DNA of 64,000 nucleotides from Myxococcota bacterium. Its GTDB lineage: Bacteria; Myxococcota_A; UBA9160; SMWR01. Shown piece by piece: positions 11,659 through 44,286 of the stretch. Position 1 is the stretch's first letter. Every line of letters starts with the position of its first letter. The notes under the pieces were generated by a model. It did no database searches, was not told the DNA's origin, and was given only the letters and a program-made list of their open reading frames with translations. The position numbers were made by a program, and so were the translations under genes. The stretch spans positions 4,377 to 68,376 of the forward strand of contig DATKND010000025.1 of the NCBI GenBank assembly GCA_035541475.1, written 5' to 3'.

Positions 11659-12338
11659 TGCGTCCACGCGCCCGCGCCCGAGTTCCAGCGGTGCAGGCGC
11701 ACGGTCCCGAGCGGCGACATCACGATCGCGTAGTCGCGATGGCCGTTGGTGAGATAGATGGCGCCGCCGGCCGCGCCGACGTTCCCGGGGCTCCCCGGTT
11801 GATCGCAGGGCGGATTCGTGGCCGCGTTCTGCGCGAACAGTCGCGGCAGCCCGTCCGCGCCGAACATCACCCAGCTCGCGTTGGCACCTGCGGGCGTGGT
11901 GAAGCTCGAGCCCGCGGCCTGGTCGCCCGACGCGCCGGCGTCGTTCGGAGCCGCCGTGCCGTTCGCCAGCGCGGGATCCGTTCCGAAGCGGACGCCCTGC
12001 TCGAACGTGATGGTCTGCACGATCTCGCCCGCATCGATCGTGCAGTTGGACGAGCCCGCCGTGTTCCCGGTGGGGCCGTCGTTGACGATCACGGCGTCCG
12101 ATGTGATGCCCGCGAGCCCCGCCTCCACCCGGAAGGCGAGGATGAAGTTGTTGCCCGTCTGGATCGCCTGGGAGCGCGTCAGCGAGAAGGCATCGGCCAT
12201 CTCGCGCGCGGAGGACGCGACTCGCTGATCGGCCGACCAGTCCGAGACGACCGAGCTCGCCAGCGCCACCATCACGCCGATCACCGCCAACACGACGACC
12301 AGCTCGATCAGCGTCATTCCGGCACGCGCGCGGTCCAC
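11655..12338 (-). CDS. GspH/FimT(FimU)-like minor pilin
   Basis: GTG 12338 lies 6 nt after GGAGG and gives the short basic leader VDRARAG followed by MTLIELVVVLAVIG. First gene of the operon. ORF maximum start is 12380. Confidence 0.75.
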   Translation of the reverse strand: MDRARAGMTLIELVVVLAVIGVMVALASSVVSDWSADQRVASSAREMADAFSLTRSQAIQTGNNFILAFRVEAGLAGITSDAVIVNDGPTGNTAGSSNCTIDAGEIVQTITFEQGVRFGTDPALANGTAAPNDAGASGDQAAGSSFTTPAGANASWVMFGADGLPRLFAQNAATNPPCDQPGSPGNVGAAGGAIYLTNGHRDYAIVMSPLGTVRLHRWNSGAGAWTQ

Positions 12339-20923: not shown

Positions 20924-21732
20924 CGACCCTTGAAGCGCGGCGCGCGCTTCTCGCCGAACGCCTTGACCGCCTCCACGTAGTCTTCGGTGAAGGCGCCCGC
21001 GACCATTCGCTCCGCCTCCTCGTCGAGGCACGACTCGAGCGGCGCCACGAGCGCGAGATTCAGGTTCTGCTTCATGTAGCGAAGCGCGATCGGCGGACCG
21101 GCGGCGATCTGACGCGCGAGCTCCTGCGCGTCCGACGCAAGCGAGGCGTCCGGCACCACCCGGTTCGCGATCCCGAGCCGCAGACACTCGATCGCGTCGA
21201 GGCGCGCCGCCGTGAAGAGCAGCTCGCGCGCCTTCGCAGTGCCGACCAGGCGCGTCAGGAACCAGCTCGCGCCGTAATCGCCCGAGAGCCCGAGCCGCGC
21301 GTAGGCCGTGGTGACGAAGGCGCTCTCGGCGAGCACGCGCAAGTCGCAGGCGAGCGCGAGCGCGAAGCCAGCGCCCGCCGCCGGACCCGGTAGCGCGGCC
21401 AGGGTCGGCTTCGGCATGCGATGGAGCGCCGCCGGGATCTCGTGCTCGCGCCGCAACATCGCGACGCGCGGCTCGCGCTCCGTCGGCGGCCCCTGCGCCA
21501 TGACCTTCGTGTCGCCGCCTGCGCAGAAGGCGCCGCCCGAGCCGGTCAGCAGCACGCAGCCGACCTCGCGATCGTTCGCGAGCGCGGGGAGCAGCGCGCG
21601 CAGCGCGTCCTTCATGCCGAGGGTGAGCGCGTTGCGCGCGTCGGGTCGGTGCAAGGTCACGACCGCCACGCGAGCCTCGACGTGACAGAGGATCTCGTCG
21701 CTGCCCGTCTCGACCCGGCGTCGGTCGCTCAT
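20920..21732 (-). CDS. Enoyl-CoA hydratase/isomerase family protein
   Basis: GGAGG lies 5 nt before ATG 21732. Crotonase fold signature VLLTGSGGAFCAGGD. Confidence 0.9.
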   Translation of the reverse strand: MSDRRRVETGSDEILCHVEARVAVVTLHRPDARNALTLGMKDALRALLPALANDREVGCVLLTGSGGAFCAGGDTKVMAQGPPTEREPRVAMLRREHEIPAALHRMPKPTLAALPGPAAGAGFALALACDLRVLAESAFVTTAYARLGLSGDYGASWFLTRLVGTAKARELLFTAARLDAIECLRLGIANRVVPDASLASDAQELARQIAAGPPIALRYMKQNLNLALVAPLESCLDEEAERMVAGAFTEDYVEAVKAFGEKRAPRFKGR

Positions 21733-21835
21733 CGGCACCTCCGAGCGCGAGACCCTATCACGGAGCCCACGCGCGGCGCCGGGCTTGCGCGCCCTGCGCG
21801 CGAGGACCTACACCCTGCGCTCGACGGAGGAACGC

Positions 21836-22705
21836 ATGGGTTTGCCGGAACCGCCGGAGCTCGGCGCGACGGCGCTGCCGAAGGGCAGCTTCACCGGGCA
21901 GGTGGTGCTCGTGACGGGCGGCGGCACGGGGCTCGGCAAGGCGATCGCCGTCGAGTTCGCGCGGCTCGGCGCCGGCGTCGCGATCTACTCGCGCAGCGCC
22001 GAGCATCTCGAGCGCGGCCGCGAGGCGATCGAGGCCGCGGGCGCGCGCGCGCTCGCGCTGCAGGGCGATGTGCGTCAGCCCGACCAGATCGCGGCGGCAT
22101 TCGACGCGCTCGGCGCGGCCTTCGGGCTTCCCGACGTGCTCGTGAACAACGCGGCCGGGAACTTCCCCGTGCCCGCCGAGGACATGAGCGCGAACGCGTG
22201 GCGCTCCGTCGTCGACATCGTGCTGAACGGGACCTTCTTCTGCTCGCGCGAGTTCGGGCGGCGCCATCTCGCCGCGGGGCGCCCGGGCGTGATTCTCAAC
22301 GTCGGGGCGAGCTACGCGTGGACAGGAGGACCTGGCTTCGCGCACTCGGCCGCGAGCAAGGCCGGCGTGAAGAACATGACCGAGACGCTCGCGGTCGAGT
22401 GGGGCCCGTACGGAATCCGCGTGAACGGGCTCGTGCCGGGGCTCATGCCGCACGAGGACGAAGTGGCGGCGATCCGCGCGGTGCCCGAGCGCCGCAAGAG
22501 CGACGGACTGCGGAGTCCCGCCGGGCGCGTCGGCTACCCGCGCGAGCTCGGCTGGGCCGCGACGTTCCTCGCGTCTCCCTACGCGGCCTACATCAGCGGA
22601 CACACGCTCGTGGTCGACGGCGCGAACTGGCAGCGACGCGCGATGCTGATGCCCGAGTTCGTGCCGATCCGCGAGCAGCTCGGCAAGGGTCCGTTCCAGC
22701 CGTGA
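21836..22705 (+). CDS. 2,4-dienoyl-CoA reductase-like short-chain dehydrogenase
   Basis: GGAGG precedes ATG 21836. VTGGGTGLGKA, NNAAGNF, NAWRSVVDIVLNGTF and SASKAGV match the DECR-type SDR pattern. Confidence 0.8.
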   Translation: MGLPEPPELGATALPKGSFTGQVVLVTGGGTGLGKAIAVEFARLGAGVAIYSRSAEHLERGREAIEAAGARALALQGDVRQPDQIAAAFDALGAAFGLPDVLVNNAAGNFPVPAEDMSANAWRSVVDIVLNGTFFCSREFGRRHLAAGRPGVILNVGASYAWTGGPGFAHSAASKAGVKNMTETLAVEWGPYGIRVNGLVPGLMPHEDEVAAIRAVPERRKSDGLRSPAGRVGYPRELGWAATFLASPYAAYISGHTLVVDGANWQRRAMLMPEFVPIREQLGKGPFQP

Positions 22706-23517
22706 CGACGTCCGGCGCGCCCGTGCTGATCCGGATCGAGATCGAGCCGCCGCTCGCGACGCTCGTGCTCGACCGGCCGGACAAGCTCAACGCCTGGAGC
22801 TGGGAGTCGGCGCGACAGCTCGCGGCGCACGCCGACGCGCTTCGCTTCGACGACCGCGTGCGCGTCGTGCTCCTGCGCGCGGAGGGCCGCGCCTTCTGCG
22901 CCGGCGTCGACCTCGGCATGCCGTCCGACCGCATCACCGGCCGCTCGCCCGCCGAGAAGTCGCGCAACTACAACGAGCGCTTCCGCTGGGTGCACGAACG
23001 CTTCCGTGTGTTCTCCGAACTGCCGCAGCCCGTGCTGGTGGCGATCCACGGCTACTGCCTCGGCGCGGGTCTCGAGGTCGCGATGATGGGCGACGTGCGC
23101 ATCGCGGCCGACGACGCGCGCTTCGGCCTGCCCGAGTCGCGCGTCGGTGTCGGGATCGACGCGGGCGCCGACCTGCGGCTGGTGACCGAGATCGGCGCCG
23201 GCTGGACGAAGCTGCTCGCCTTCACGGGCCGCCGCATCGACGCCGAGACGGCGCTGCGCATCGGCATCGTGCAGGAGGTCGTGCCGCGCGAGGCGCTGAC
23301 CTCGCACGTGCGAGCGCTGGCCGCGGAGATCGCGGCGAACGCGCCACTCGCCGTGCAGACGATCAAGCGCACGATCAACTACCGCGCCGCGCAGGGCCTC
23401 GCGGAGGCGCTCGCCTACGAGGCCGCAAGCGCGTCTTCGCTCTTCGTGTCCGACGACATGGCGAAGGGCTACGCGGCGATGGCGGAGAAGCGGGATCCTG
23501 GCTTCGAGGGGAAATAG
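22702..23517 (+). CDS. Enoyl-CoA hydratase/isomerase family protein
   Basis: GTGA overlap with the upstream stop. LRAEGRAFCAGVDL crotonase signature. Confidence 0.85.
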   Translation: MTTSGAPVLIRIEIEPPLATLVLDRPDKLNAWSWESARQLAAHADALRFDDRVRVVLLRAEGRAFCAGVDLGMPSDRITGRSPAEKSRNYNERFRWVHERFRVFSELPQPVLVAIHGYCLGAGLEVAMMGDVRIAADDARFGLPESRVGVGIDAGADLRLVTEIGAGWTKLLAFTGRRIDAETALRIGIVQEVVPREALTSHVRALAAEIAANAPLAVQTIKRTINYRAAQGLAEALAYEAASASSLFVSDDMAKGYAAMAEKRDPGFEGK

Positions 23518-23563
23518 CGCCCAACGAGCATCGAGCTCCATCGAACCGGGTCGGCCTTCTGAA

Positions 23564-23604
23564 CTTCGCTCGCCTGCGGCTCGCTGCGCGCCGCCTTCGG
23601 CGGC
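23564..23604 (+). repeat. GC-rich intergenic repeat, copy R1 (27-nt box plus hairpin)
   Basis: CTTCGCTCGCCTGCGGCTCGCTGCGCG followed by hairpin GCCGCC-TTC-GGCGGC. Lies between convergent stops 23517 and 23608. Confidence 0.8.
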
Positions 23605-23607
23605 TTG

Positions 23608-24756
23608 CTATTCCAGCCCGAGTCTTCGCGCGATGATCACCTTCATGATCTCGTTCGTGCCCGCGTAGATCGACTGCACCGCAGCATCGGCGTAGTCGCC
23701 CGAGATCGGGTACTCGGTCATGAAGCCGTAGCCGCCGTGGAGCTGCAGGCACTCCGAGGTCAGTCGCTTCTGCAGGTCGGTGGTCCAGAACTTCGCCATG
23801 CTGACCTCGGTCACGATGTCGTCGCCGCGCACGTGCGCGGCGAGCAGCTTGTCGACGAAGGCCTGCCCGATCTCGACCTCCGCCGCGAGCTCGGCGAGCT
23901 TGAACTGCGTGTTCTGGAACGCGGCGATCGGGCGGCCGAAGGCGCGGCGCTCGCGCACGTAGGCGATCGTGTCGTCGAGGGCGCGGCGGCACGACGCCAT
24001 CGAGCTGACGCCGATACAGAGGCGCTCCTGCTGGAGCTGCGCCATCAACATCTTGAAGCCCTGCCCCTCGCGGCCGAGCCGATTCGAGACGGGCACGCGG
24101 CAGTCCTCGAAGGAGAGCTCGCTCGTGTCCTGGCCCTTCAGCCCGAGCTTTTCGAGGTTGCGGCCGCGACGGAAGCCCGGCCGGTCGCCCTCGACCAGGA
24201 TCAGGCTGATGCCGTCGTGCGGCGGACGCGCGTCCGGATCGGTCTTCGCGACGACGATCACGAGGTCGGCGATCTGGCCGTTCGAGATGAAGGTCTTGGC
24301 GCCGTTCAATACGTAGTGGTCGCCGTCGCGCAGCGCGCGCGTCTGCACGTTCGCGAGGTCGGAGCCCGTTCCCGGCTCGGTCATCGCGATGGCGAGGATG
24401 ATCTCGCCGGAGATCGCGCCGGGAAGGAAGCGCTGCTTCTGCTCGGGTGATCCGTATGCGACGAGATACGGAATGCAGATGTCGGAGTGCAGCGACATCA
24501 TCAGCGCGTGTGCGCGCACGCGCGCGAACTCCTCCATCACGATCGCGTCGAAGAGGAAATCGCCGCCCGCTCCACCGTACTCCTCGGGCGCGTGCGCGCC
24601 GAGGTATCCGGCCGCACCGACTTTCCGCCAGGTATCGCGGTCGCTCATCCGGTTGCGGTTCCACTCCGCGACCTTCGGCGCGATCTCCGCCTCGACGAAG
24701 CGCCGCACCTGACCGCGGAACAGCTCGTGCTCTTCGCTGAAGATCTCCCTGCGCAT
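23608..24756 (-). CDS. Acyl-CoA dehydrogenase
   Basis: GAGGAGG precedes ATG 24756. AMTEPGTGSDL, YVLNGAKTFISNG and QLHGGYGF motifs are present. Confidence 0.92.
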   Translation of the reverse strand: MRREIFSEEHELFRGQVRRFVEAEIAPKVAEWNRNRMSDRDTWRKVGAAGYLGAHAPEEYGGAGGDFLFDAIVMEEFARVRAHALMMSLHSDICIPYLVAYGSPEQKQRFLPGAISGEIILAIAMTEPGTGSDLANVQTRALRDGDHYVLNGAKTFISNGQIADLVIVVAKTDPDARPPHDGISLILVEGDRPGFRRGRNLEKLGLKGQDTSELSFEDCRVPVSNRLGREGQGFKMLMAQLQQERLCIGVSSMASCRRALDDTIAYVRERRAFGRPIAAFQNTQFKLAELAAEVEIGQAFVDKLLAAHVRGDDIVTEVSMAKFWTTDLQKRLTSECLQLHGGYGFMTEYPISGDYADAAVQSIYAGTNEIMKVIIARRLGLE

Positions 24757-25007: not shown

Positions 25008-25775
25008 ATGAAGGCCATCGTGCTGAGCGCCGGCCAGGGGCGGCGGTTGCTGCCCCGCACTTGCCAGGTTCCAAAGTGCCTGCTCGCCCTCGACGGCGAA
25101 CGCAGCGTTCTCCAGCTCCAGCTCGAAACCCTCGCGCGCTGCGGGATCACGGAGGCGCTCGTCGTGACCGGATTCGGTGCCGAGCGGGTCCACGCCCATC
25201 TGGCCGAGCGGCGTACCCCGGGGATCCGGGTGGCGACGATCTTCAACCCGTTCTACGGCACCAGCGACAATCTGATCTCGTGCTGGCTGTCTCGAACCGC
25301 GATGAACGATGACTTCCTGCTCCTGAATGGCGATACGGTGTTCGAGGACGGTGTCCTGCTGCGCCTTCTCGGCTCGGTCCACGACCCTCTGACCGTGACC
25401 GTCGATCACAAGCGCCACTACGACGACGACGACATGAAGGTCGCGCTCGACGGGTCGGGACGAGTGATGGCGATCGGCAAGCAGCTCCCCGCGGACGCCG
25501 TCGGCGCAGAGGCAATCGGCCTGATCGCTTTCGCGGGATCGGGCCCGAAGCTCTTCATCGAAGGGCTCGAGCGCGCGGTCCGGCGACCCGATGCAAACCG
25601 CTGCTGGTACCTGTCCGTCGTACACGAGCTGGCTGAAGAAGACGGGGTGGTGGGAACGGCGTCGGTCCGCGGGCTCTGGTGGCGCGAGATCGACGCGGAC
25701 GAAGACCTCCTGCTGGCGCGCGAGGAATGGCTCGGCCGGGCCGCCCTCACGGGTCCAGTGGGGGCGCAAGCGTAG
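25008..25775 (+). CDS. Sugar-phosphate nucleotidyltransferase (LicC / IPCT-like cytidylyltransferase family)
   Basis: MKAIVLSAGQGRRLLP...PKCLL N-terminal signature. LLLNGDTVF. The C-terminal WWREIDADEDL is typical of LicC-like enzymes. Confidence 0.8.
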   Translation: MKAIVLSAGQGRRLLPRTCQVPKCLLALDGERSVLQLQLETLARCGITEALVVTGFGAERVHAHLAERRTPGIRVATIFNPFYGTSDNLISCWLSRTAMNDDFLLLNGDTVFEDGVLLRLLGSVHDPLTVTVDHKRHYDDDDMKVALDGSGRVMAIGKQLPADAVGAEAIGLIAFAGSGPKLFIEGLERAVRRPDANRCWYLSVVHELAEEDGVVGTASVRGLWWREIDADEDLLLAREEWLGRAALTGPVGAQA

Positions 25776-25887: not shown

Positions 25888-26703
25888 ATGATGCGGGTAG
25901 GGGACATCACGATCGGTGGCGGCGCGCCGCTGGTCCTCATCTCCGGCCTGAACGTTCTCGAGACGCTCGACGGTGCGCTGTTCTGCGCCGAGGCCGTGCG
26001 AGAGATCGCGGACCGACACGGTCTGCCGGCGATCTTCAAAGCGTCCTTCGACAAGGCCAATCGCTCGAGCCGCGACTCGTATCGCGGTCCGGGGCTCGAC
26101 CTCGGCCTTCGCATGCTGGAGCAGGTGAAGGATCAGGTCGGCATCGCGGTCACGACGGACGTCCACGAGCCCGGCCAGGCAAAGATGGTCGCCGAGGTCG
26201 CGGACCTCCTTCAGGTGCCGTCGTTTCTGTCCCGCCAGACGGATCTCGTGGCGGCATGTGCGGGGACCGGTCGCCCGCTGAACATGAAGAAGGGGCAGTT
26301 CATGGGCCCCTCCGACGCCGCGCTCGCGGCGCGCAAGGCGATCAGCTTCGGCGCGAGCGGCGTGATGCTGACCGAGCGCGGCACGAGCTTCGGCTACCAC
26401 GACCTGATCGTCGACCTGCGGGGCCTCGTGCTGATGCGCGAGACGGTTCCGGTCTGCCTCGACGCGACCCACGCGACCCAGCATCCGGGCGCCGGCCGGG
26501 GCGCGAGCAGCGGCGACCGCCGCTTCGTGTCCCCGCTGGCGCGGGCCGCCGCCGCGGTCGGGGTGGACGCGCTCTTCATCGAGACGCACCCCGAGCCGGA
26601 GAAGGCGCCCTGCGATGGGGCCTGCCAGATCCGCCCCGCGGACCTCGACCGCCTCGTCGCGGACGTGTGCGCGATCCGAGGCGTCCTCGAGACCCGACGC
26701 TAG
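25888..26703 (+). CDS. kdsA: 3-deoxy-8-phosphooctulonate (Kdo-8-P) synthase
   Basis: Collinear with E. coli KdsA: GLNVLE, FKASFDKANRSS..SYRGPG, TDVHEP, QVPSFLSRQTDL, DATHATQ, FIETHPEP..APCDG. The Asn in GLNVLE suggests the metal-independent class. Confidence 0.92.
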   Translation: MMRVGDITIGGGAPLVLISGLNVLETLDGALFCAEAVREIADRHGLPAIFKASFDKANRSSRDSYRGPGLDLGLRMLEQVKDQVGIAVTTDVHEPGQAKMVAEVADLLQVPSFLSRQTDLVAACAGTGRPLNMKKGQFMGPSDAALAARKAISFGASGVMLTERGTSFGYHDLIVDLRGLVLMRETVPVCLDATHATQHPGAGRGASSGDRRFVSPLARAAAAVGVDALFIETHPEPEKAPCDGACQIRPADLDRLVADVCAIRGVLETRR

Positions 26704-26763: not shown

Positions 26764-27564
26764 GTGAAGGTCGAAGACTTCTCCGTCCTGATCCTCGCCG
26801 GCCGGCGCGGACCTCACGACGCGCTGGCGGAGAGCCGCGGCGCGACGCACCGCGCGCTGCTTCCGGTCGACGGCATCCCGATGCTCGTACGCGTCGTGCG
26901 GACCTTGCGAGCCGCAGGGCTGGAGCGGATCCACGTGAGCATCGACTCGCCCGAGCTGCTCGAGGCGGAGCCGGAGCTCGCGGCGCTCCATCGCGAGAGC
27001 GCGCTCGAGATCGATCGCAGCGAGGGCTCTCCGTCGCGCAGCGTCGCCTCCGCGCTCGCCCCGGACGCGATGCTGCCCTGCCTCGTCACGACGGCCGATC
27101 ACGCCCTCCTCACGCCCGAGATGGTCCGACACTTTCTCGGAGAGGCGTGCCGCTCGTCGGCCGATCTGCTGATCGGGATGGTGGCGGCGTCGGTCGTGCA
27201 GCGCGCGTACCCCGAGACTCGCCGCACCTATCTGCGGCTGCGCGGTGAGGCGTGGTCCGGCGCCAATCTGTTCGCCTTTCGCACACCGCGCGCGCGGCGC
27301 GTCGCCGACTTCTACGTCCGCGCGGAGCGCTTCCGCAAGCAGCCGTGGCGACTCGTCGCCGCGCTCGGTCCGTCACTGCTGCTCCTCTACGGACTGCGGC
27401 GCCTGGATCTCGACGGCGCGCTGGCGCGAGGCTCGCCGCGACTCGGCGCGCAAGTCGCCGCAGTGCACATGCCGCAGGCCGAGGCCGCGATCGATGTCGA
27501 CCGCGAGGGCGATCTCGTGCTCGCCGAGAGGATCTTGCGCGACCGCGCGGCGATCGCTCGCTAG
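26764..27564 (+). CDS. MobA-like (NTP_transf_3) nucleotidyltransferase
   Basis: GTG start. SVLILAGRRG ... ALLPVDGIPMLVRVV N-terminal pattern of MobA-like nucleotidyltransferases. Substrate unknown. Confidence 0.65.
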   Translation: MKVEDFSVLILAGRRGPHDALAESRGATHRALLPVDGIPMLVRVVRTLRAAGLERIHVSIDSPELLEAEPELAALHRESALEIDRSEGSPSRSVASALAPDAMLPCLVTTADHALLTPEMVRHFLGEACRSSADLLIGMVAASVVQRAYPETRRTYLRLRGEAWSGANLFAFRTPRARRVADFYVRAERFRKQPWRLVAALGPSLLLLYGLRRLDLDGALARGSPRLGAQVAAVHMPQAEAAIDVDREGDLVLAERILRDRAAIAR

Positions 27565-28556
27565 AGCGCTCGCGCCTCGCCTTCGGCGCGAAAGCGTCCG
27601 CTCCCCGGGTCGAGTCCGCGCGCGCGCAGCGTGAATCGCGGCTTGCCTGCGTCGGACGCGACGTCGATCAGGTGATACTGCGCGCGCTTGCCCGGCTTCG
27701 AGCCGACGTCCGATGCCGAGCACGCGCACACCACCGGGATCTCGCCGTGCGGCCCGGGCAGCGACGCGAAGCGCTGTCGGTGGAGGTGACCGTGCAGCAC
27801 GAGCTCGGCGCCCGCGCGCGCAAGCACCGCAGCGAGCGCCGGTGCGTCCCACAGCGCGCGTCGCCAGGACACCATCCCAGGCACCGGCGCGTGGTGCACG
27901 AGCACGACGCGCACGAGCCCGCGCTCGCGAAGCGCGACGAGCGCCGACTCGAGACGTTCGAGCTGCGCCGCACCGAGCGAGCCGCCGGCGACGAGGGGCG
28001 GCGTCGGATGCGCCGAGCTGAGCCCGACCAGCGCGAGCGGACCGCGCACGCGCACGCTCGGAAAGCCCGACGCGGGATCCACGCGATCGCGCCACTCCGC
28101 GTCGGGACGCAGCCATTCGCTCCACAGCGACCAGGAGCTCTCGCGCGGCACACCGACGTACGCATCGTGATTGCCCGGCACCAGGCTGACCCGCTCGGGA
28201 TCGCCGATCCGCTCGAGCCAGCGGCGCGCGCTCGCGAACTCCTCGACGAGCGAGATGTTCGTCAGATCGCCCGTCACCGCGACGTGATCGGGCGCCTGCG
28301 CGTGCAGATCCTCGATCAGCGCCTCGACGACTTCGGGGCGGTGCACGTGACATCGGTGCAGGCGCCACGAGAGCCAGCCGAGCGCGCGCTTCCCGAGCAG
28401 CGGCAGCGGACTGCGCGGCGCGACCGGCGTCGCGTGCAGGTCGGAGAGATGCGCGAGCGTGTAGATGGCGTCCTCCGCGAGGTCGGCGAACCTAACCCAG
28501 CGCACTCCGCTGTGATACGGTCGCCGGCGCCCATGTCCGCGCCGCCGCGAGAACAC
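27561..28556 (-). CDS. Metallophosphoesterase (calcineurin-like)
   Basis: HLSDLH, TGDLTN, GNHD and LVHHAP / HGHLH motifs appear in the canonical order. The start is ambiguous (GTG 28556 or GTG 28505). Confidence 0.8.
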   Translation of the reverse strand: MFSRRRGHGRRRPYHSGVRWVRFADLAEDAIYTLAHLSDLHATPVAPRSPLPLLGKRALGWLSWRLHRCHVHRPEVVEALIEDLHAQAPDHVAVTGDLTNISLVEEFASARRWLERIGDPERVSLVPGNHDAYVGVPRESSWSLWSEWLRPDAEWRDRVDPASGFPSVRVRGPLALVGLSSAHPTPPLVAGGSLGAAQLERLESALVALRERGLVRVVLVHHAPVPGMVSWRRALWDAPALAAVLARAGAELVLHGHLHRQRFASLPGPHGEIPVVCACSASDVGSKPGKRAQYHLIDVASDAGKPRFTLRARGLDPGSGRFRAEGEARAL

Positions 28557-29711
28557 CGTCGGCCCGGCGCCGCCGAATCCGCCGCGATCGGCTGGATCCT
28601 CGAGAGCGACGCGCGAGAGCGATCGGGCGCCGAGCTCTCGACCTTCGGGCTCACGCCGGGCGAGCGCATGCGCCGCTCGCTGGCCCGCGCGGGCTGCGCG
28701 CCTCGCCGCGTCGACGACGACTCGCTACCCGCGCTCGCACCGTGCGATCGCGTGGCCCTGCTGCGCGCCGATCGCATCCTCGACGAGCGGCTCGTGCGCG
28801 CGCTCGTCCACGCGCCCGACACCTGGCTGGAAGACGAGGCGCTCGGCCCGCTCGGCGCGCAGGTCGTCGCGCAGGATGCGGCGGCGGCGGCGGCGGCGCT
28901 GCGCGGCTGCGCGCGCGCGCCAGGAGGCCTGCGCCGCGTGACGCCCGACGCGCTGGTGCCCGCGTGGCGAGCCGAGCTCCGCAAGAGCGAGCCGCCGTGG
29001 GTCTGCGACGTCCGGCCCGAGCGCGCGCGAGAGATCGAGCGCCGCATCTTCGATGCGTCCTACAAGGGCGCCACCGATCTCGTGACGAAGTGGGTCTGGC
29101 CGATTCCGGCGCGCGCCGTCACGCGCTGGTGTGCCGAGCGCGGCATCTCGCCGAATGCGGTCACGCTCGCGAGCTGGGTGCTCGCCCTCGCCGTGATCGC
29201 TCTCTTCGCGAAGGGTGCCTTCGCGCTCGGGCTGCTGCTCGCCTGGCTCATGACCTTCCTCGACACCGTCGACGGAAAGCTCGCGCGCGTGACGCTCACC
29301 TCGAGTCGCCTCGGGAGCGTGCTCGACCACGGACTCGATCTCCTGCATCCGCCGTTCTGGTACCTGGCGTGGAGCCACGGGCTCGCCGTCCCGTCACCCG
29401 TCGCGACCGCCGTGGCGGTCGGTGGCTACGTCGTCGGCCGCGCGCTCGAAGGCGCCTTCCTCGCGCGCTTTCGCATCGAAGCGCACTCGTGGCGCCCGAT
29501 CGACGCGCTCTTTCGCACGATCACCGCGCGCCGCAACCCGAACCTGATCCTGCTCTCGGTCGGCGCCGCGTGCGGGCGACCCGATCTCGGCCTCGTGATG
29601 GTGGCGCTCTGGACGGTCGTCTCGGTCGGCTTCCACTCGCTGCGGCTCGCTCAGGCCTTTGCGGCAGCGCGGCGCGGCGAGGCCGTTGTCGGCTGGGACG
29701 CTTCGCGATGA
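28533..29711 (+). CDS. CDP-alcohol phosphatidyltransferase family protein with about 130-aa N-terminal cytosolic extension
   Basis: DTVDGKLARVTLTSSRLGSVLDHGLDLLHP fits D-x2-DG-x2-AR...G-x3-D-x3-D, followed by multiple TM helices. The N-extension (FGLTPGERMRRSLARAG) resembles a degenerate nucleotidyltransferase-like domain. The start is uncertain (ATG 28533; alternative ATG 28668). Confidence 0.8.
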   Translation: MSAPPREHRRPGAAESAAIGWILESDARERSGAELSTFGLTPGERMRRSLARAGCAPRRVDDDSLPALAPCDRVALLRADRILDERLVRALVHAPDTWLEDEALGPLGAQVVAQDAAAAAAALRGCARAPGGLRRVTPDALVPAWRAELRKSEPPWVCDVRPERAREIERRIFDASYKGATDLVTKWVWPIPARAVTRWCAERGISPNAVTLASWVLALAVIALFAKGAFALGLLLAWLMTFLDTVDGKLARVTLTSSRLGSVLDHGLDLLHPPFWYLAWSHGLAVPSPVATAVAVGGYVVGRALEGAFLARFRIEAHSWRPIDALFRTITARRNPNLILLSVGAACGRPDLGLVMVALWTVVSVGFHSLRLAQAFAAARRGEAVVGWDASR

Positions 29712-30766
29712 CGCGCGGCCTGCGAGCGCGCGCCGGCGCGCTCGCGGCGCTGGCGCTCGCGCGAGCCGCCCTCGCGGACGGCGCGCCGCCACTCGTCGAT
29801 CCCGCCGCAAAGCGACCCGTCGGTGCGTCGGCCTCGGAGTACTGGGATCTCGTCGCCTCGTTCGAGGGCGGCGTCTGCGTGACCGCGCGCTTCACGATCT
29901 TCGATGAAGGCGCTGGCCGTCATAGCGCGGCCGCCTTCGGCCATTTCTTGCGATCGGACGCCCCGCCGGTCGCATTCCAGAACGGGCGTCGCGACGGGCG
30001 CTGGCGGCTCTCGCCGGACGGACGCCGAATCGAGATCGGCTCGAGCCTGCTCGCGCTGTCGGACACCGCGCGCCACTTCGAGGTCGACAACGACAAACGC
30101 GGCGTGAAGGTGTTCCTCGACTGGAGCACGGACGCCAGCGCGCAGAGCGTGCCGGCTTCGGCGCTGCCGGACTCCTACGCCGTCGACTTGCTCCAGCTCG
30201 CGAGCCCCGTGCGCGCGTCTATACAGGTCGGTGGGATGGCGTCGCCGCTGCGGCTCTCGGGCACGCTGAGCTTGACCCACACGTCGATGTCGGTCGCCGA
30301 GGACGAGCGGGTGCTGCGCCGAACCGACGTGGCCAGCATCGATCCGGACTCGGGCGCCTACCTCCTCGATCTCCTCGACCCCGCGGGCAAACGCTTCTCC
30401 TGGATCTTCGTGAGAGCGGAAGGAGCCTCCGCGCTAACGCGCTCGGGCCTCGATCCACGCTTCGAAAGCGGAGGCGAGAAGAGCGGTTATCCGATTGCGT
30501 CGGGTCTCGTGATCGACCGCGGCGAGGTGCAGGGCCGGATCGCCGTGAAGCCCCCGCGCCTCGAAGTCGACCCGCTGGCCACACTTCCGGCGCCCCTGCG
30601 GATGTTGTACTCCTTGCGCCGTCGTCCGCACCGAAGCTGGGCCGAATCGAGCTACGAGCTCTCGTGGGTGCCCGGGCCGGAGCACCCCGCGGTCCGGGTC
30701 GCGGGCGACGCGATCGCAACGTTCTCCTTCCTCGACGCTCTGCCCCCCGACGAGATCCGACCCTGA
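29708..30766 (+). CDS. Secreted hypothetical protein (possibly lipocalin/CrtC-AttH-like)
   Basis: ATGA overlap with the upstream stop. Signal peptide MTRGLRARAGALAALALARAALA. The fold guess is weak and rests only on the SEYWDL...F.IFDEG pattern. Confidence 0.6.
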   Translation: MTRGLRARAGALAALALARAALADGAPPLVDPAAKRPVGASASEYWDLVASFEGGVCVTARFTIFDEGAGRHSAAAFGHFLRSDAPPVAFQNGRRDGRWRLSPDGRRIEIGSSLLALSDTARHFEVDNDKRGVKVFLDWSTDASAQSVPASALPDSYAVDLLQLASPVRASIQVGGMASPLRLSGTLSLTHTSMSVAEDERVLRRTDVASIDPDSGAYLLDLLDPAGKRFSWIFVRAEGASALTRSGLDPRFESGGEKSGYPIASGLVIDRGEVQGRIAVKPPRLEVDPLATLPAPLRMLYSLRRRPHRSWAESSYELSWVPGPEHPAVRVAGDAIATFSFLDALPPDEIRP

Positions 30767-30792: not shown

Positions 30793-31746
30793 GTGCGAGT
30801 GGGCGTCCTCAACAACCTGAAGGCGGGCCGCAACCGCAAGCAGGTCTCCCGCGTCCTCGACGTGCTGCGCCGCTATCCGGACGTCGCGCACGTGGAGACC
30901 GAGAGCGTGCGCGATCTGCCCGAAGCGCTCGTCGAGCTGACGCGGCGCGAGGTCGATCTGCTCGTCGTCAACGGCGGCGACGGCACGCTCCAGTACGTGC
31001 TGACGGAGCTCCTCGGCAGCGCCGACCTGCCTTCGCTTCGCTTCGTCGCGCCGCTGCGGGGAGGTCGCACCAACATGACCGCCTCCGATCTCGGCGCGGA
31101 CCCGCGACACGGGCGCGGTCTCGTGTCGCTGCTCGACGCGCTCGCCGCCGGCCGCCTCGACGAGCGCCTGGTGGCGCGCCCGGTGCTGCGCGTCGCGTCG
31201 TCGCGTCGTTCGGGCGTGCAATACGGGATGTTCTTCGGCGCCGGCATGATCCAGCGCGCGGTGGCGCTCGTGCACCGCACCTTCCCGCCCGGGCAGCAAG
31301 GCGTCTTCGGCGCGGGAATCGTGACCGGTGCGCTGATCACCCGGGCCTTCACCAATCCGAGCGACGGCATCCTCACGCCCGACAAGGCGGTCGTGCACGT
31401 GGACGGTCATCCGCTCCGCCACTCGGAGTTCTACCTGCTGATCGCGTCCACCCTCTCGCATCTCTTCCTCGGCATGCGGCCCTTCTGGGGCGACGGCGCC
31501 GGCGGCGTGCGTCTGACCGGCATCTCGAGCCGTCCCCGGCGCAGCATCGTCGCGGCGCCCGGGATCCTGCGCGGGCGCCCGCGGGCATTCGTCACGCCGG
31601 AGAACGGCTACGAGAGCGCGAACGCGCACCGCGCGCAGATCGCGATGGCCTGCGGCTTCACGATCGACGGGGAGATCTTCGCGCCGGAGCCGGACGAACA
31701 GGTCGAGCTCTCCGCCGACCGGAGACTCGCGTTCGTCCGCGCCTGA
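30793..31746 (+). CDS. Diacylglycerol-kinase catalytic-domain lipid kinase (YegS/BmrU-like)
   Basis: GGAGG lies 7 nt before GTG 30793. VGVLNNLKAGRN and the VVNGGDGT signature are present. Confidence 0.8.
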   Translation: MRVGVLNNLKAGRNRKQVSRVLDVLRRYPDVAHVETESVRDLPEALVELTRREVDLLVVNGGDGTLQYVLTELLGSADLPSLRFVAPLRGGRTNMTASDLGADPRHGRGLVSLLDALAAGRLDERLVARPVLRVASSRRSGVQYGMFFGAGMIQRAVALVHRTFPPGQQGVFGAGIVTGALITRAFTNPSDGILTPDKAVVHVDGHPLRHSEFYLLIASTLSHLFLGMRPFWGDGAGGVRLTGISSRPRRSIVAAPGILRGRPRAFVTPENGYESANAHRAQIAMACGFTIDGEIFAPEPDEQVELSADRRLAFVRA

Positions 31747-31747
31747 A

Positions 31748-31872
31748 TGCCGGGCCTTCGCGCTCGCTCTTCGCTCGCGCTCGGGCTACCGGCCTTCGCT
31801 CGGCAAGCCTTTGCGATCTCCGCTCGGCTACGCCTCGCTGCGCGTCGGCCGACTTTGCGGTCGGCCTCCTTG
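31748..31872 (+). repeat. GC-rich intergenic repeat, copy R2 (expanded long variant)
   Basis: GCCGGGCCTTCGC, then three CTTCGC(G)CTCG sub-repeats, then GCTCGGCTACGCCTCGCTGCGCGTCGGCCGAC-TTTGCG-GTCGGCCTCCTTGC. Both ends match copy R5. Confidence 0.8.
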
Positions 31873-31874
31873 CG

Positions 31875-32843
31875 GTGACGAGGGATAGCGGCCTCGCCGC
31901 CCTCGTTCGCGACGAGCTCGTGCGCCCTGCGCCGGCGTCCGCGCAGGCCTTCGCCGAGGAGCTGCGCCGACGCCACGGCGCGTCGCTCGCCGGTGTCCTC
32001 TTCTACGGCTCCTGCCTGCGGCGCGGCAGCGACGAGGGCGTGCTCGACTTCTACGCGCTCGTCGACGACTACCGCGGCGCCTACCGCTCGCACGCGCTGC
32101 GGCTCGCCAACGCCGCGCTGCCGCCGAACGTCTTCTATCTCGAGCTGCCCCGCGGCGACACGAGGCTGCGCGCGAAGTACGCGGTCTTCTCGCTACGCGA
32201 CTTCGCGCGCGCGGTGCAGCTCACGTCGCTGCGCACGGGCACGTGGGCGCGCTTCTGCCAGCCGACGGTGTGCGCGCACGCGCGCGACGACGCTGCGCTC
32301 GCGGCGCTAGTCGATTCGCTGTGCGCGGCCGTCGAGAGCGCCGTGCTGCGCGGGCTGGCGCTGCTGCCGGGCGAAGGGGACGTGCGCGACGTGACGCCCG
32401 AGCCGCTGTGGCTCGGGCTCTTCCGGGACACATATGCCTCGGAGCTGCGTCCCGAGAGCGATGCAGGACCGCGCGCGATCTACGCCGCCGATCCTCCCCG
32501 CTACGCGCGCGCCCTCGCGGCCGCGCTGGACGCGCTGGCGCGAGAGGGCCAAGTTCGCGTGCTCGAGACGGCGGTCGAGCGCTGGCGCGTCGCGTGTCCG
32601 CCCGGGTCGCTCGCGTCCGCGCGTCGGCGCGCCGCGCTGCGGCGGCCGCTGGCGAAGGCCGCCGCCACCGTGCAGCTGCTGAAGAGCGCGCTCACCTTCG
32701 GCGACTGGCTGCCCTACGCGCTCTGGAAGCTCGAACGACACACGGGCACGCGGCTCGAGCCGAGCGAGCGACAGCGACGACACCCTCTCGTGTTCGGGTG
32801 GCCGCTGATCGCCCGCGTGCTCTGGAAGCGCGAGCTGAGATAG
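31875..32843 (+). CDS. Tam41/Mmp37-like protein (putative CDP-diacylglycerol synthase of the mitochondrial type)
   Basis: VLFYGSCLRRGSDEGVLDFYALVDD, PPNVFYLELP....LRAKYAVFSLRDF and TWARFCQP parallel the Tam41 blocks FGYGSGVF / IDFIFGV.D / VYFNPF...IKYGV / W..LY.AGRL.KP. This is a recollection-based match, not a search result. Confidence 0.5.
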   Translation: MTRDSGLAALVRDELVRPAPASAQAFAEELRRRHGASLAGVLFYGSCLRRGSDEGVLDFYALVDDYRGAYRSHALRLANAALPPNVFYLELPRGDTRLRAKYAVFSLRDFARAVQLTSLRTGTWARFCQPTVCAHARDDAALAALVDSLCAAVESAVLRGLALLPGEGDVRDVTPEPLWLGLFRDTYASELRPESDAGPRAIYAADPPRYARALAAALDALAREGQVRVLETAVERWRVACPPGSLASARRRAALRRPLAKAAATVQLLKSALTFGDWLPYALWKLERHTGTRLEPSERQRRHPLVFGWPLIARVLWKRELR

Positions 32844-32911: not shown

Positions 32912-33394
32912 CTACAACGGGCGGCGCGCCGGACGGCCCTCGCGGTCGAGCGCGGCCGACACCCCGGAGACGACGCCCTTCACGATCTGGACGACGTCGT
33001 GGACGTCGCCATCGATCAGGCGCAGCAGGCGCGCGGCCAGCGCACGCTCGGCGCGCGCGGTCGCGGCGCGACCTTCGTCGGTCAGCTCGAGGCGGATCCC
33101 GCGGCGGTCGGTCGGCACCGGCACGCGGCGCAGCAGGCCCGCCTGCTCGAGACCGTCGACGAGCGAGGTCAGGGTCGGGCGCGAGACCCCGACCGCGTTG
33201 GCCAGCTCGCTCGCGCGCTGCGAGCCGCCGAACGCCGAAACCAGGAGGCGGTACTGCGGGAGGCTGATGCCCGTCGACTGGCAGGTCTGCTCCGCGACCC
33301 GCGCCAGTCGCGCCAGGAGCCGGATGCCCGCCGTGAAGTCGACCGTGTCGGGCTCGGGTCGGATCGAGGGAACAGGGCGCGTGAGCAGGCTCAT
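32912..33394 (-). CDS. MarR family transcriptional regulator
   Basis: GGAGG precedes ATG 33394. ISLPQYRLLVSAF...ASELANAVGVSRPTLTSLVDGLEQAGLLRR...DRRGIRLELT is a winged HTH. Confidence 0.85.
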   Translation of the reverse strand: MSLLTRPVPSIRPEPDTVDFTAGIRLLARLARVAEQTCQSTGISLPQYRLLVSAFGGSQRASELANAVGVSRPTLTSLVDGLEQAGLLRRVPVPTDRRGIRLELTDEGRAATARAERALAARLLRLIDGDVHDVVQIVKGVVSGVSAALDREGRPARRPL

Positions 33395-33511: not shown

Positions 33512-34321
33512 GTGGCGCGCGTGCAGGTGGTTCTCCTGACGGGCGCCTCCCAGGGCATCGGCGCGGCGACCGCCCGTCGCCTCGCGGCGCGGGGGCTCGA
33601 GGTCTACGGAACCAGCCGGCGCCCCGAGCGGCTGCCAGAGAGCGCACCGCCGATCCACTGGATCGGGATGGACGTGCGCGACGACGCGTCGGTACAGCAG
33701 GGTGTGTCGGATGCGCTCCAGCGCGCGGGCCGCCTCGATGGGCTCGTCTGCAATGCGGGCTTCGGGATCTTCGGCAGTGTCGAGGAGGTGTCGCTCGCTG
33801 ACGCGCAGTCGCAGTTCGAGACGAACTTCTTCGGCGTGCTGCGCTGCGTGCGCGCGGCCGTGCCGCATCTGCGCAAGCAGGGGAGCGGACGCGTGGTGCT
33901 GGTCGGATCACTGGCCGGGCGCGCGCCCATTCCCTTCCAGTCGCACTACTCCGCTTCCAAGGCGGCGATCGACTCGCTCGCGCAGTCGCTCCACAACGAG
34001 CTCCATGGCAGCGGCGTCCACGTGTCGCTCGTCGAGCCGGGCGACATCCACACCGGCTTCAACGACGAGATCGACTTCTCCTCCGCGGACGCCTCGCCCT
34101 ACGGCGCACGCATCGCGCGCTGCCGCGAGGTGATCGAGCGCTCGCTCGTCGATGCGCCGCCCGCGGACCGCGTCGCGCGGGCGGTCGAGCGCGCGCTCTG
34201 CGACGCGAGGCCGCGCTTCCGCTACGCCGTCGGACGCGAGGCGCCGCTCGTCGCCGTCGGGCGTCGCCTGCTGCCCGAGCGGCTGCTGCTGCGCCTGCTG
34301 CGCGGTCACTTCGGAATCTAA
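33512..34321 (+). CDS. Short-chain dehydrogenase/reductase
   Basis: [17 protein letters not shown] and YSASKAA motifs. The start is uncertain (in-frame ATG 33428/33461, GTG 33512/33521). Confidence 0.85.
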
Positions 34322-41864: not shown

Positions 41865-41901
41865 CGAATTCGCGAAGGCGCCGGTGTTAGACTCGCTCGC
41901 C

Positions 41902-44286
41902 ATGGCGAGCGCGCTCCAGGGGCCGCTGCGCGACGAGCCGACCTGGCCCGCGATCGGTGTCGCAGGACCGTCGCGCGTCCTCTTCCTGTGCGACAGCTCG
42001 AGCCGGCTCGAGCAGCGCCTGCTCGAGGCGTGGGTCGCGCGCCACCGACCGGACGGCGCGGACTGCGAGTGCGTCGCCATCCCGCCCTCGCGCCGCCGGC
42101 GCGAGATCTCGCAGCACCCGCTCGAGGCGCGCATCGCGGCCGCCGGCGACGACCTCGTGCTCGCGCCACTGCGCGTCGCGTGGCTGCCGCGCAAGCGCGA
42201 CGGCGTGCGCGCGGCGCGCTTCTCCGATCTGCTGAAGCTCGGCGACCCGCGCGATCCGTCCTGGCTGCGCCAGCACGTGATCCTGCGCCGCGAGCGCGAC
42301 CGCTGCCGCGTCGTCGCCGGCGAGCCCGCGCCGCTCTCCGAGCTGCGCGCGCGCTGGCAGGCCGCTTCCCGCGCGGGCGCGGAGTCCGCCTCGCTCGCGG
42401 ACTACGTGTCGCGACAGGCCGCGCTCGCGCTCGAGCGCGCCGAGCGGCGGCTTCGCGGCGCGCGCTACAAGGTCCCGCGCCTGGTACACGAGGACATCCT
42501 CGGGCGCCCGGCCTTCCGCGGCGGCCTGGCCCTCCTGGCGCGCGAGCAGCGGCGAAGCTCCGCGAGCGTGGCCCGCGAGGCCGCGCGCGACCTGCGCGAG
42601 ATCGCGGCGACGCACAGCACCTTCGTGATCGACCTCGCCGCGCAGCTGATCCGCATGATGTACACGCGCGGCTACGGCGAGTCGCTGCACTACGACCGGG
42701 AGAAGCTGGCGCGCGTCCAGTCCCTGGCGCAGCGTCACCCCGTGGTGTTGCTTCCGACCCACAAGTCGAATCTCGACCACCTCGTGCTCCAGTACATGCT
42801 CTACGAGAACGGCCACCCGCCGAACCACACGGCCGGCGGCATCAACATGAACTTCTTCCCGGTCGGCCCGCTGGTGCGGCGCAGCGGCGTCTTCTTCATC
42901 CGGCGGAGCTTCAAGGACGACGCCGTCTACAAGTTCGTGCTGCGCCACTACATCGACTACCTGATCGAGAAGCGCTTCTCGCTCGAGTGGTACATCGAGG
43001 GCGGTCGCTCGCGCTCCGGCAAGCTGCTGCCGCCCCGCTTCGGCCTGCTCGCCTACGTGGTCGACGCCTATCGCCGCGGCCGGAGCGACGACGTCGTGCT
43101 GATCCCCGTGTCGATCGCCTACGACCAGATCAGCGACGTGCCCGACTACGCCGCCGAGCAGTCGGGCGCGGCCAAGCAGCGCGAGAGCTTCGGCTGGTTC
43201 CTGCGCTTCCTGCGGCGGCTCGGCCGCCGCTACGGCGAGATCCACATCTCGTTCGGCGAGCCGCTGTCGCTGGCGAAGGCGCTCGGCCCTCCCGATCCGC
43301 AGGCGTCGCCCGACCCCGACGAGCAGAGCCTCGCGCTCCAGAAGCTCGCCTTCGAGGTGTGCCTGCGCATCAACCAGGTCACTCCGATCACGCCGATCTC
43401 GCTGGTCGCGCTCGCGGTGCTCGGCGCGGCCGACCGCGCGCAGACGGTCGAAGACGTGCGCGCGCGCCTCGCGAACCTGCTCTACGACGTCGCGCGCCGG
43501 CAGCTCCCCGTCACGAACGGCGCGGAGCTCGAGACACGCGAGGGCGTCGAGCGTGTGCTCGAGGCGCTCGTCGAGAACGGCGTGGTGACCCGCTTCGACG
43601 AGGGCAGCGAGCGCGTCTACCTGATCGGGCCCGACCAGCAGCTCGCCGCGGCCTACTACCGCAACACCATCATCCACTTCTTCGTGAACCCGGCGATCGG
43701 CGAGCTGGCGCTGCTGCGCGCGGCGGAGGCGGGCGGCGCAGACGCCGCGGGCGAGTTCTTCCGCGCCGCGATGCAGCTCCGCGATCTGCTGAAGTTCGAG
43801 TTCTTCTTCGCGGACAAGGAGATCTTCCGCGGCGAGCTGCGGCGCGAGCTGGCCGAGCGCGATCCGCACTGGGAGGACGCGCTGCGCGGCGGCCCCGATC
43901 CGATCCAGCGCCTGGTGCGGAGCTTCCGACCGTTCAACTCGCACCGCGTGCTGCGACCCTTCTTCGAGGCCTACCGCGTCGTCGCGGATCTGCTCGCGCG
44001 CCAGGACCCGGCTGCGCCGCTCGACCGCGCGCGCTTCCTCGCGGCGTGCATGGGCGTCGGGCGGCAGTACCACCTGCAAGGGCGCCTGCACTCGACGGCG
44101 TCGATCTCGCGCGTGCTGTTCGAGAACGCGCTGCGACTGGCGGAGAACCGCGCGCTGCTCGAGCCGGGTCAGCCCGAGCTCGCGCGCTGGCGCAGCGCGT
44201 TCGCCGACGAGATCCGCGGCTGGCTCCGCCGGATCGACGCCATCGACGCGCTGGCGGCGAGCCGCCGCGCGGGCCTGATCCACTGA
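41902..44286 (+). CDS. plsB: Glycerol-3-phosphate acyltransferase
   Basis: About 795 aa. H(X4)D box LPTHKSNLDHL, FFIRRSF and YIEGGRSRSGKLL..RFGLL blocks are collinear with PlsB. Alternative start GTG 41884. Confidence 0.9.
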   Translation: MASALQGPLRDEPTWPAIGVAGPSRVLFLCDSSSRLEQRLLEAWVARHRPDGADCECVAIPPSRRRREISQHPLEARIAAAGDDLVLAPLRVAWLPRKRDGVRAARFSDLLKLGDPRDPSWLRQHVILRRERDRCRVVAGEPAPLSELRARWQAASRAGAESASLADYVSRQAALALERAERRLRGARYKVPRLVHEDILGRPAFRGGLALLAREQRRSSASVAREAARDLREIAATHSTFVIDLAAQLIRMMYTRGYGESLHYDREKLARVQSLAQRHPVVLLPTHKSNLDHLVLQYMLYENGHPPNHTAGGINMNFFPVGPLVRRSGVFFIRRSFKDDAVYKFVLRHYIDYLIEKRFSLEWYIEGGRSRSGKLLPPRFGLLAYVVDAYRRGRSDDVVLIPVSIAYDQISDVPDYAAEQSGAAKQRESFGWFLRFLRRLGRRYGEIHISFGEPLSLAKALGPPDPQASPDPDEQSLALQKLAFEVCLRINQVTPITPISLVALAVLGAADRAQTVEDVRARLANLLYDVARRQLPVTNGAELETREGVERVLEALVENGVVTRFDEGSERVYLIGPDQQLAAAYYRNTIIHFFVNPAIGELALLRAAEAGGADAAGEFFRAAMQLRDLLKFEFFFADKEIFRGELRRELAERDPHWEDALRGGPDPIQRLVRSFRPFNSHRVLRPFFEAYRVVADLLARQDPAAPLDRARFLAACMGVGRQYHLQGRLHSTASISRVLFENALRLAENRALLEPGQPELARWRSAFADEIRGWLRRIDAIDALAASRRAGLIH

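Follow-up and report, generated by a model that had tools for sequence, protein, structure and literature searches.

The stretch of DNA analysed here, 64,000 nucleotides of a contig (DATKND010000025.1) from an uncultured Myxococcota bacterium and hereafter called the window, contains at positions 31875 to 32843 a gene, the target of this study, whose product of 322 amino acids (aa) is probably an enzyme of the CpgC type, active in the synthesis of an anionic sphingolipid and forming a CDP-lipid from ceramide phosphate in a CTP-dependent, Tam41-like reaction. The parts of this statement are not equally firm. We have hardly any doubt that the protein belongs to the Tam41/Mmp37 superfamily, as a divergent bacterial branch of it, and we consider it very probable that it is a member of the family of CpgC (CC_1161/CCNA_01219) of Caulobacter. 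That it forms a CDP-lipid is a conclusion that we favour with some reserve, and ceramide is, to a similar degree, the likelier lipid in the source organism.

The target and its family

The open reading frame (ORF) of the target has a third-codon-position GC content of 0.90, as in genuine genes of this window of about 71% GC. The original prediction, made by eye, had compared four blocks of the translation with remembered motifs of Tam41. All four are present (FYGS at residues 43-46, LDFYALVDD at 57-65, VFYLELP...LRAKYAV at 86-104 and TWARFCQP at 123-130), and they are the best-conserved portions of a large family. Among the candidates scored, 1392 homologues were found at E<=1e-3, and an exhaustive search gave 1520 clusters of the family at 50% identity, of which 551 reached E<=1e-30. 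Where the sources in these homologue searches named the proteins at all, the name was "hypothetical", and a precomputed Pfam domain was attached to none of them. Eight residues (G45, D58, K101, R126, Q129, E190, R192 and E194) are the same in all of 124 diverse members.

An AlphaFold2 model of the target, built on the family alignment (pLDDT 88, pTM 0.85), shows two domains, one of the nucleotidyltransferase (NTase) type and one resembling a winged helix, and a C-terminal region rich in basic and aromatic residues. On composition only, the net charge of the final 78 residues is +12; seven of them are aromatic, and they include no transmembrane segment. We propose that the product is a peripheral-membrane NTase.

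Relationship to Tam41

When the target model was compared with the PDB by Foldseek, Tam41 of Schizosaccharomyces pombe came out on top (6ig2_C, E 1.5e-7, TM-scores 0.45/0.51; 6ig4_A, E 1.7e-6), with structural alignments of about 280 columns, TM-scores of 0.45-0.54 and 14-15% identity. The next matches, aminoglycoside nucleotidyltransferases, followed at E ~6e-4 and TM-scores of ~0.25-0.3. A wide profile (A2) made from the 124 diverse relatives and run against all PDB sequences had the same two Tam41 entries, 6ig2/6ig4, as its sole significant matches (E 9e-5). Finally, 19 of these 124 relatives matched PF09139, the Pfam family of Tam41, at E<=0.01, and a single one, P0163, passed its gathering score (34.3 bits against 24). 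It is because of these three results together, the structural match, the profile match and the PF09139 matches among relatives, that we regard the relationship to Tam41 as established.

The target sequence itself matched no family of Pfam or NCBIfam even at E<=1, PF09139 included, and the PDB returned nothing relevant to it, whether searched with the single sequence (phmmer) or with a narrow profile of 26 sequences. None of 31 alphaproteobacterial members of the family matched PF09139 either. By its sequence, the target thus falls outside PF09139 as this family is now defined. The likeness to Tam41/Mmp37 seen by eye in the original prediction therefore holds at the level of the superfamily and fails as membership of PF09139; of the computational checks proposed with it, the comparison of structures spoke for Tam41 and the profile search of the target spoke against its Pfam family.

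The resemblance extends to individual residues. In the profile alignment, G45/S46, D58, K101, R126, P130, E190, R192 and E194 of the target face identical or conservatively replaced residues of S. pombe Tam41, lying there in the motifs YGS, MIDF, IKYGV, GRFQKP and YLGDIR..AE. The NTase motif of the target family keeps one acidic residue of the canonical three (D58, followed by F59/Y60), and the basic residues K101, R126 and R192, invariant in the family, have K and R opposite them in S. pombe Tam41. Tam41 itself has a single acidic residue in its NTase motif and positions CTP by basic residues (PMC11646218), and it binds the membrane peripherally through its basic C-terminus (PMC7018664). The target thus shares with Tam41/TAMM41 and with Tam41 of Firmicutes the combination of NTase and winged-helix fold (in the target, as modelled), the lone acidic NTase residue and a basic C-terminal region, and it keeps equivalents of the motifs YGS, D, K-Y, R-F-x-x-P and Y-x-x-[DE]-x-R-...-E.

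The two also differ, beyond the missing PF09139 match, the low identity and a TM-score of only ~0.5, in that the target has a strongly conserved C-terminal block (TFGDWLPYALWKLERHTG...ERQRRHP) lying past the Tam41 residues covered by the profile alignment, and in their substrate, which is phosphatidate for Tam41 and probably ceramide-1-phosphate for the target. CdsA would be like the target in the type of reaction proposed (a lipid phosphate and CTP giving a CDP-lipid and pyrophosphate), whereas its fold is unrelated and it is an integral membrane protein (PMC7018664). Among the ORFs of the 64-kb window that were scanned, no cdsA gene was found. In Escherichia coli, a conditional cdsA mutant is partly rescued by yeast Tam41.

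Match to the ceramide-diphosphoglycerate genes of Caulobacter

A tblastn search of a plasmid collection gave homologues of the target in cultured bacteria, again beside a gene for a "diacylglycerol kinase family protein". One of these loci, on a megaplasmid of Roseomonas mucosa, is a complete bacterial sphingolipid cluster, with genes for a PLP-dependent aminotransferase (Spt), an acyl carrier protein (ACP), a short-chain dehydrogenase/reductase (SDR), a fatty acyl-AMP ligase, two LptF/LptG paralogues, an ELM1/GtrOC1 glycosyltransferase, two NTP transferases and a metallophosphoesterase, and, in this order, a CDP-alcohol transferase, a DAG-kinase-family gene and the target homologue. The kinase gene precedes the target homologue with an overlap of 4 bp both in Roseomonas and in Qipengyuania.

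In Caulobacter crescentus, CC_1159 (CpgA, a CDP-alcohol transferase), CC_1160 (CpgB) and CC_1161 (CpgC) follow one another and are followed by spt, and the six genes of ceramide-diphosphoglycerate (CPG2) synthesis are completed by the phosphoesterase CC_1158, the CofC-like nucleotidyltransferase CC_1153 and CC_1152 (CpgD, a CTP:phosphoglycerate cytidylyltransferase) (PMC9393093, PMC11324152, PMC12275187). When the proteins of the Roseomonas cluster were compared with the window by tblastn, homologues of all six of these families were found in it (Table 1). The target lies, as CpgC does, directly after a CpgB-type kinase and within the same six-family set of genes.

The positional orthologues of CpgC in Roseomonas and Erythrobacteraceae align with the target over its full length. 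In a comparison of profiles by hhalign, the Myxococcota family and 31 alphaproteobacterial positional CpgC orthologues were aligned over 302 columns, again full-length, with a probability of 100 and E 1.4e-78. The ends of CC_1161, which we rebuilt from published cloning and deletion primers ("MSRLR...VAAELS" and "...WRERRQAA*"), agree with termini found in the family ("LVAAELA", and "WRLRRRGAVR*" or "WRKRRAQR*"), although this comparison is a short one, of 6 + 8 residues only. The link of CpgC to Tam41 was already in print: homologues of CC_1161 have been reported to carry IPR015222 (Tam41/Mmp37) and to occur in delta-proteobacteria (PMC11324152, S1 Text).

The differences are those of lineage and of gene content. 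The target comes from an uncultured Myxococcota-type genome and is ~36% identical to the alphaproteobacterial proteins; its cluster adds a gene for a 352-aa protein, adjoins kdsA and, within 64 kb, is without genes of ceramide synthesis.

Conserved neighbours and gene fusions

Relatives of the target are carried by 506 species-level genomes (the scan was run with alignment A1, the wide A2 being too diverse for it), and the genomes of relatives are labelled nearly all as Myxococcota, Deltaproteobacteria or Candidatus Binatia metagenome-assembled genomes, with few other labels. We compared 83 loci, 80 from these genomes and three from contig look-ups (two contigs are duplicated), and counted neighbours by local tblastn with the proteins of the window, within 10 kb of the target relative. 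A DAGK_cat kinase lies immediately upstream of the relative in 79 loci. The MobA/CofC-like nucleotidyltransferase is near it in 63, the metallophosphoesterase in 59, the 352-aa protein in 51, the CDP-alcohol transferase in 50 and KdsA in 27, and a homologue of the SDR at 33512-34321 lies downstream in 35. A CpgD-like homologue is present in 19 of the 83 loci. In seven loci the genes of the nucleotidyltransferase, the kinase and the Tam41-like protein stand alone side by side. Homologues of Spt, of a CerR-type SDR and of a 385-aa protein, a putative ceramide synthase, are found 2-5 kb downstream in 19-22 of the 83 loci, mostly in Binatia. The cluster is absent from CP070734 (L001/L009), where only a short kinase-like match stands before the gene and the gene calls look fragmentary.

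Some members of the family are fused to one of these neighbours. Two proteins, P0221 and P0510, encoded on two different contigs, are fusions of DAGK_cat and the target family, and P0132 is a fusion of NTP_transf_3 and the family. At positions 3135-6378 of locus L086, a CDP-alcohol transferase gene is followed by a DAGK_cat::Tam41-like fusion of 662 aa, the two forming a compact unit. An NTP_transf_3::Tam41-like fusion of 594 aa is encoded at 7364-9148 of L087, after genes of ketoacyl synthase and polyketide cyclase-like proteins. This synteny and these fusions show that the kinase and the nucleotidyltransferase act in concert with the Tam41-like protein.

Several loci (L002, L003, L004 and others) have genes for an ELM1/GtrOC1-type glycosyltransferase, an MsbA-like ABC transporter and LptF/LptG beside the cluster, and the ELM1 protein in related loci is often a product of ~700 aa, fused to a second domain. 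This arrangement suggests that the lipid pathway is co-organised with genes of lipopolysaccharide.

Proposed pathway

Beyond the fold, family membership, conserved residues, synteny and fusions that we observe, we infer a pathway in which the cytidylyl-transfer chemistry, CTP as the nucleotide, the acceptor, ceramide as the lipid of the source organism and the sequence of the later steps all remain conditional. With ATP as the phosphate donor, the CpgB-like kinase would first act on a lipid alcohol, of which ceramide is the most probable, so that ceramide-1-phosphate is formed. The basic C-terminus of the Tam41-like enzyme would keep it at the membrane, where it would then move CMP from CTP to the lipid phosphate, with a CDP-lipid (CDP-ceramide) and pyrophosphate as products. 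In a third step, CMP would be exchanged for the hydroxyl of a head group of the (phospho)glycerate type, either by the CDP-alcohol phosphatidyltransferase that the cluster encodes or by a relative of it. The CpgD-like and CofC-like nucleotidyltransferases and the metallophosphoesterase would finally add or trim a second phosphoglycerate, and the end product would be an anionic phosphosphingolipid for the outer membrane.

We prefer ceramide-1-phosphate to phosphatidate as the probable substrate because the set of six genes matches that of Caulobacter and because relatives of the target adjoin spt, cerR and the putative ceramide synthase gene. In Caulobacter, CpgB is a demonstrated ceramide kinase (PMC12275187, PMC9393093), and cpgB and cpgC are both required for ceramide phosphoglycerate, ceramide phosphate being retained when cpgC is deleted (PMC9393093). 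The kinase of the window is, by prediction, probably a ceramide kinase too. A narrower proposal, that the module of kinase and Tam41-like enzyme makes CDP-ceramide which is used directly by the clustered CDP-alcohol transferase in Myxococcota and Binatia, is one that we put forward with slightly more doubt than confidence.

The cluster may also be compared with the route of PgsA, or of a phosphatidylinositol-phosphate (PIP) synthase, followed by a phosphatase. There, as in the window, a CDP-alcohol phosphatidyltransferase with the canonical motif (DxxDGxxARx8Gx3Dx3D in the CpgA-like translation) is accompanied by a phosphoesterase, and by analogy a phosphorylated intermediate could be made here and then dephosphorylated. 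The model for Caulobacter differs, since CpgA is required there only for the second phosphoglycerate and the donor proposed is CDP-glycerate from CpgD (PMC12275187, PMC11324152).

A number of points weigh against the formation of CDP-ceramide by the target. The protein reaches no threshold of Pfam, and the TM-scores of its model with Tam41 are moderate, around 0.5. In the literature that we searched, we found no activity for any CpgC-family protein, nor the term "CDP-ceramide", and the mechanism of CpgC is still called unidentified in the literature as of May 2026 (also PMC12275187). CpgA is needed in Caulobacter only for the second phosphoglycerate (PMC9393093, PMC11324152), which leaves the consumption of a CDP-ceramide there without an assigned enzyme. 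Finally, the 64-kb window lacks spt, cerR and genes for ACP, a ceramide synthase and LptFG paralogues, and with a PlsB gene 9 kb away the substrate may, in this lineage, be a glycerolipid. The absence of the ceramide genes from the window does not refute ceramide as the substrate, because such genes are scattered in Sphingomonadales.

Alternative explanations

A first alternative accepts the target as an enzyme of the CpgC family and denies it a CDP-lipid product. It might attach (phospho)glycerate directly to ceramide-1-phosphate, or use a nucleotide other than CTP, for instance ATP or GTP with an AMP- or GMP-lipid as product, or nucleotidylate the head group. Direct addition was the original model for Caulobacter, in which CpgC adds glycerate to ceramide phosphate (PMC9393093), and the description of the mechanism as unidentified agrees with this family of explanations, as does the fact that nucleotide specificity is not readable from sequence; the fusion to a CofC-like nucleotidyltransferase shows, moreover, a close cooperation with an enzyme that activates head groups. 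However, direct addition of glycerate was judged energetically unfavourable by Olea-Ozuna et al. (PMC11324152), it is the invariant residues of the family that the target has in common with Tam41, which points to a common chemistry, and the L086 unit, with its fusion of kinase and family member next to a CDP-alcohol transferase, fits a CDP-lipid donor. We therefore think that an enzyme of this kind without a CDP-lipid product is rather unlikely.

The second alternative is the one of the original prediction, in which a true Tam41-type CDP-diacylglycerol synthase and a diacylglycerol kinase supply CDP-diacylglycerol to the CDP-alcohol transferase independently of CdsA. The fold and the Tam41-like conserved residues are as expected of such an enzyme; Tam41 of Firmicutes has been reported to make CDP-diacylglycerol (Kimura 2022, as cited in PMC11646218), some database entries call relatives of the target "phosphatidate cytidylyltransferase", and the window combines a nearby PlsB with a lack of sphingolipid synthesis genes. 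The best NCBIfam matches of the CpgA-like transferase, archaetidylinositol-phosphate and PIP synthases, are to enzymes that use CDP-diacylglycerol or CDP-archaeol. On the other side, the family stands apart from PF09139 proper, which matches neither the target nor its 31 alphaproteobacterial members, the whole set of six genes corresponds to the ceramide-diphosphoglycerate genes of Caulobacter, relatives occur beside spt, cerR and the putative ceramide synthase gene, and in Caulobacter itself the cpgC deletion keeps ceramide phosphate and lacks ceramide phosphoglycerate, with a demonstrated ceramide kinase acting upstream (PMC9393093, PMC12275187). We consider a CDP-diacylglycerol synthase to be unlikely.

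What survives of the original prediction, besides the superfamily, is its architecture. The target does directly follow a soluble DAGK_cat kinase (above the PF00781 cut-off and with no transmembrane segment), a pairing that the related loci and the fusions bear out, and the chain from kinase to cytidylyltransferase to CDP-alcohol transferase is consistent with the compact unit of L086; in the window, too, a CDP-alcohol transferase gene lies upstream. Its choice of phosphatidate as the substrate gives way to ceramide-1-phosphate as the probable one, and the pair is probably not a bypass of CdsA for bulk phospholipid.

A third alternative, a non-catalytic scaffold or regulator with a degenerate NTase fold, as the loss of two of the three canonical acidic residues might suggest, is most improbable, given that the active enzyme Tam41 has the same loss (PMC11646218) and that the 124 diverse members have a number of polar and charged residues in common without exception.

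Significance

We do not describe a new kind of system. The link between CpgC and Tam41, the delta-proteobacterial homologues and the idea of cytidylyl transfer were all in print in 2024, and bacterial Tam41 enzymes have been described. The clusters mapped in 2024 were from alpha-, beta- and gamma-proteobacterial genomes (PMC11324152), and the present member of this known kind belongs to lineages beyond these, Myxococcota and Binatia. The conversion of ceramide phosphate by CpgC is the unsolved step of the Caulobacter pathway (PMC12275187), and to this problem the present analysis adds the same set of six genes in uncultured Myxococcota and Binatia, support at the level of structure and residues for Tam41-like cytidylyl transfer, and fusions by which the kinase and a head-group nucleotidyltransferase are linked to the Tam41-like enzyme. 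An existing hypothesis is thereby strengthened and made easy to assay, with ceramide-1-phosphate and CTP.

Caulobacter can live without lipid A thanks to its ceramide (di)phosphoglycerate, which is also the proposed target of polymyxin there (PMC12275187, PMC9393093, PMC11324152). If the target makes CDP-ceramide and the clustered transferase uses it directly, sphingolipids would have their counterpart of CDP-diacylglycerol, a liponucleotide that no organism has yet been shown to make, and several hundred uncultured species would have, beside their lipopolysaccharide genes, a Kennedy-type CDP-lipid route to anionic phosphosphingolipids.

The gene cluster in the window

Table 1. The target, its cluster and nearby genes, with the intervals matched by proteins of the Roseomonas mucosa cluster (tblastn, per cent identity)
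Gene product	Position	Strand	Matches and remarks	Roseomonas match
CpgD-like cytidylyltransferase, candidate CTP:phosphoglycerate cytidylyltransferase	25008-25775	+	PF00483 and PF12804 matches; LicC 1jyk E 5e-8	25008-25709, 50% ("phosphocholine cytidylyltransferase family" protein)
KdsA, Kdo-8-phosphate synthase	25888-26703	+	NF003543 343.6 bits (cut-off 242); TIGR01362 329 bits (cut-off 314)	
CC_1153-like MobA/CofC-type nucleotidyltransferase	26764-27564	+	PF12804 E 2.2e-13, weak CofC match	26770-27528, 41% (NTP transferase)
CC_1158-like metallophosphoesterase	27561-28505, alternative start 28556	-	PF00149 E 2.3e-14	27582-28463, 43% (metallophosphoesterase)
CpgA-like CDP-alcohol phosphatidyltransferase	28533-29711	+	PF01066 E 2.6e-9; membrane protein, N-terminal cytoplasmic extension	28965-29678, 51% (protein in CpgA position)
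Conserved 352-aa protein	29708-30766	+	Signal-peptide-like N-terminus; between transferase and kinase	
CpgB-like lipid kinase, DAGK_cat	30793-31746	+	PF00781 E 3.2e-8, 33.6 bits (cut-off 23.6)	30934-31704, 31% (kinase in CpgB position)
Target, CpgC-family, Tam41-superfamily putative lipid-phosphate cytidylyltransferase	31875-32843	+	322 aa, GTG start	31875-32789, 36%, E 1.4e-27 (CpgC-like homologue)
Divergent MarR	32912-33394	-	Downstream of target	
SDR	33512-34321	+	Downstream of the MarR gene; NF049977 (KdsR) 209 bits, below 400-bit cut-off	
PlsB-type glycerol-3-phosphate acyltransferase	41884-44286	+	892 bits to NF002886; 9 kb from cluster	

The kinase is without any hydrophobic segment, and it had no match among PDB sequences at E<=0.01. 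Between its gene and the target lies a spacer of 128 bp (31747-31874), unusually long, as the two genes are separated by 8 bp or less, or overlap by 4 bp, in the related loci inspected. This spacer contains, directly ahead of the GTG start of the target, a short GC-rich hairpin, GGCCGAC-TTTGCG-GTCGGCC. A scan of the cluster for promoters and terminators gave nothing informative.

The gene kdsA sits between two head-group nucleotidyltransferase genes in the window. We considered a head group of the Kdo type, supplied by this adjacent KdsA, and rejected it: the protein passes the cut-offs of the housekeeping equivalogs and nothing else supported the idea. KdsA is probably a neighbour, a housekeeping gene of lipopolysaccharide synthesis rather than a member of the pathway. 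A search of the 64-kb window for an ELM1 gene found none.

The 352-aa protein matched no profile of Pfam, NCBIfam or the PDB, and no counterpart of it is present in the clusters of Roseomonas and of the Caulobacter type. An AlphaFold model from its single sequence is unusable (pLDDT 33); poor as it is, it consists mostly of beta-strands. For the SDR downstream of the divergent MarR gene, the model of KdsR (3-ketodihydrosphingosine reductase) ranks behind generic SDR models, and a link to the synthesis of sphingoid bases is possible, as a lead only.

The region is rich in genes of lipid metabolism, the cluster being flanked by the PlsB gene and by a block of the fatty-acid beta-oxidation type at 19301-24756 (an acyl-CoA synthetase, two enoyl-CoA hydratases, an SDR and an acyl-CoA dehydrogenase).

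Other features of the window

Three further features may be mentioned. At 46984-49077 (+), an intein with LAGLIDADG homing-endonuclease domains splits a radical SAM protein of the PA0069/Rv2578c family, a protein whose NCBIfam matches include "intein-containing Rv2578c family radical SAM protein". A cluster for a type IV pilus tip and minor pilins occupies 5616-12317 (-), with a PilY1-domain protein of 1338 aa and, after it, several small proteins, among them two with N-terminal methylation motifs. At the very beginning of the window (2-2337, +) stand the genes of a 7TM-transglutaminase protein and, after it, of a "sugar-transfer associated" ATP-grasp protein.

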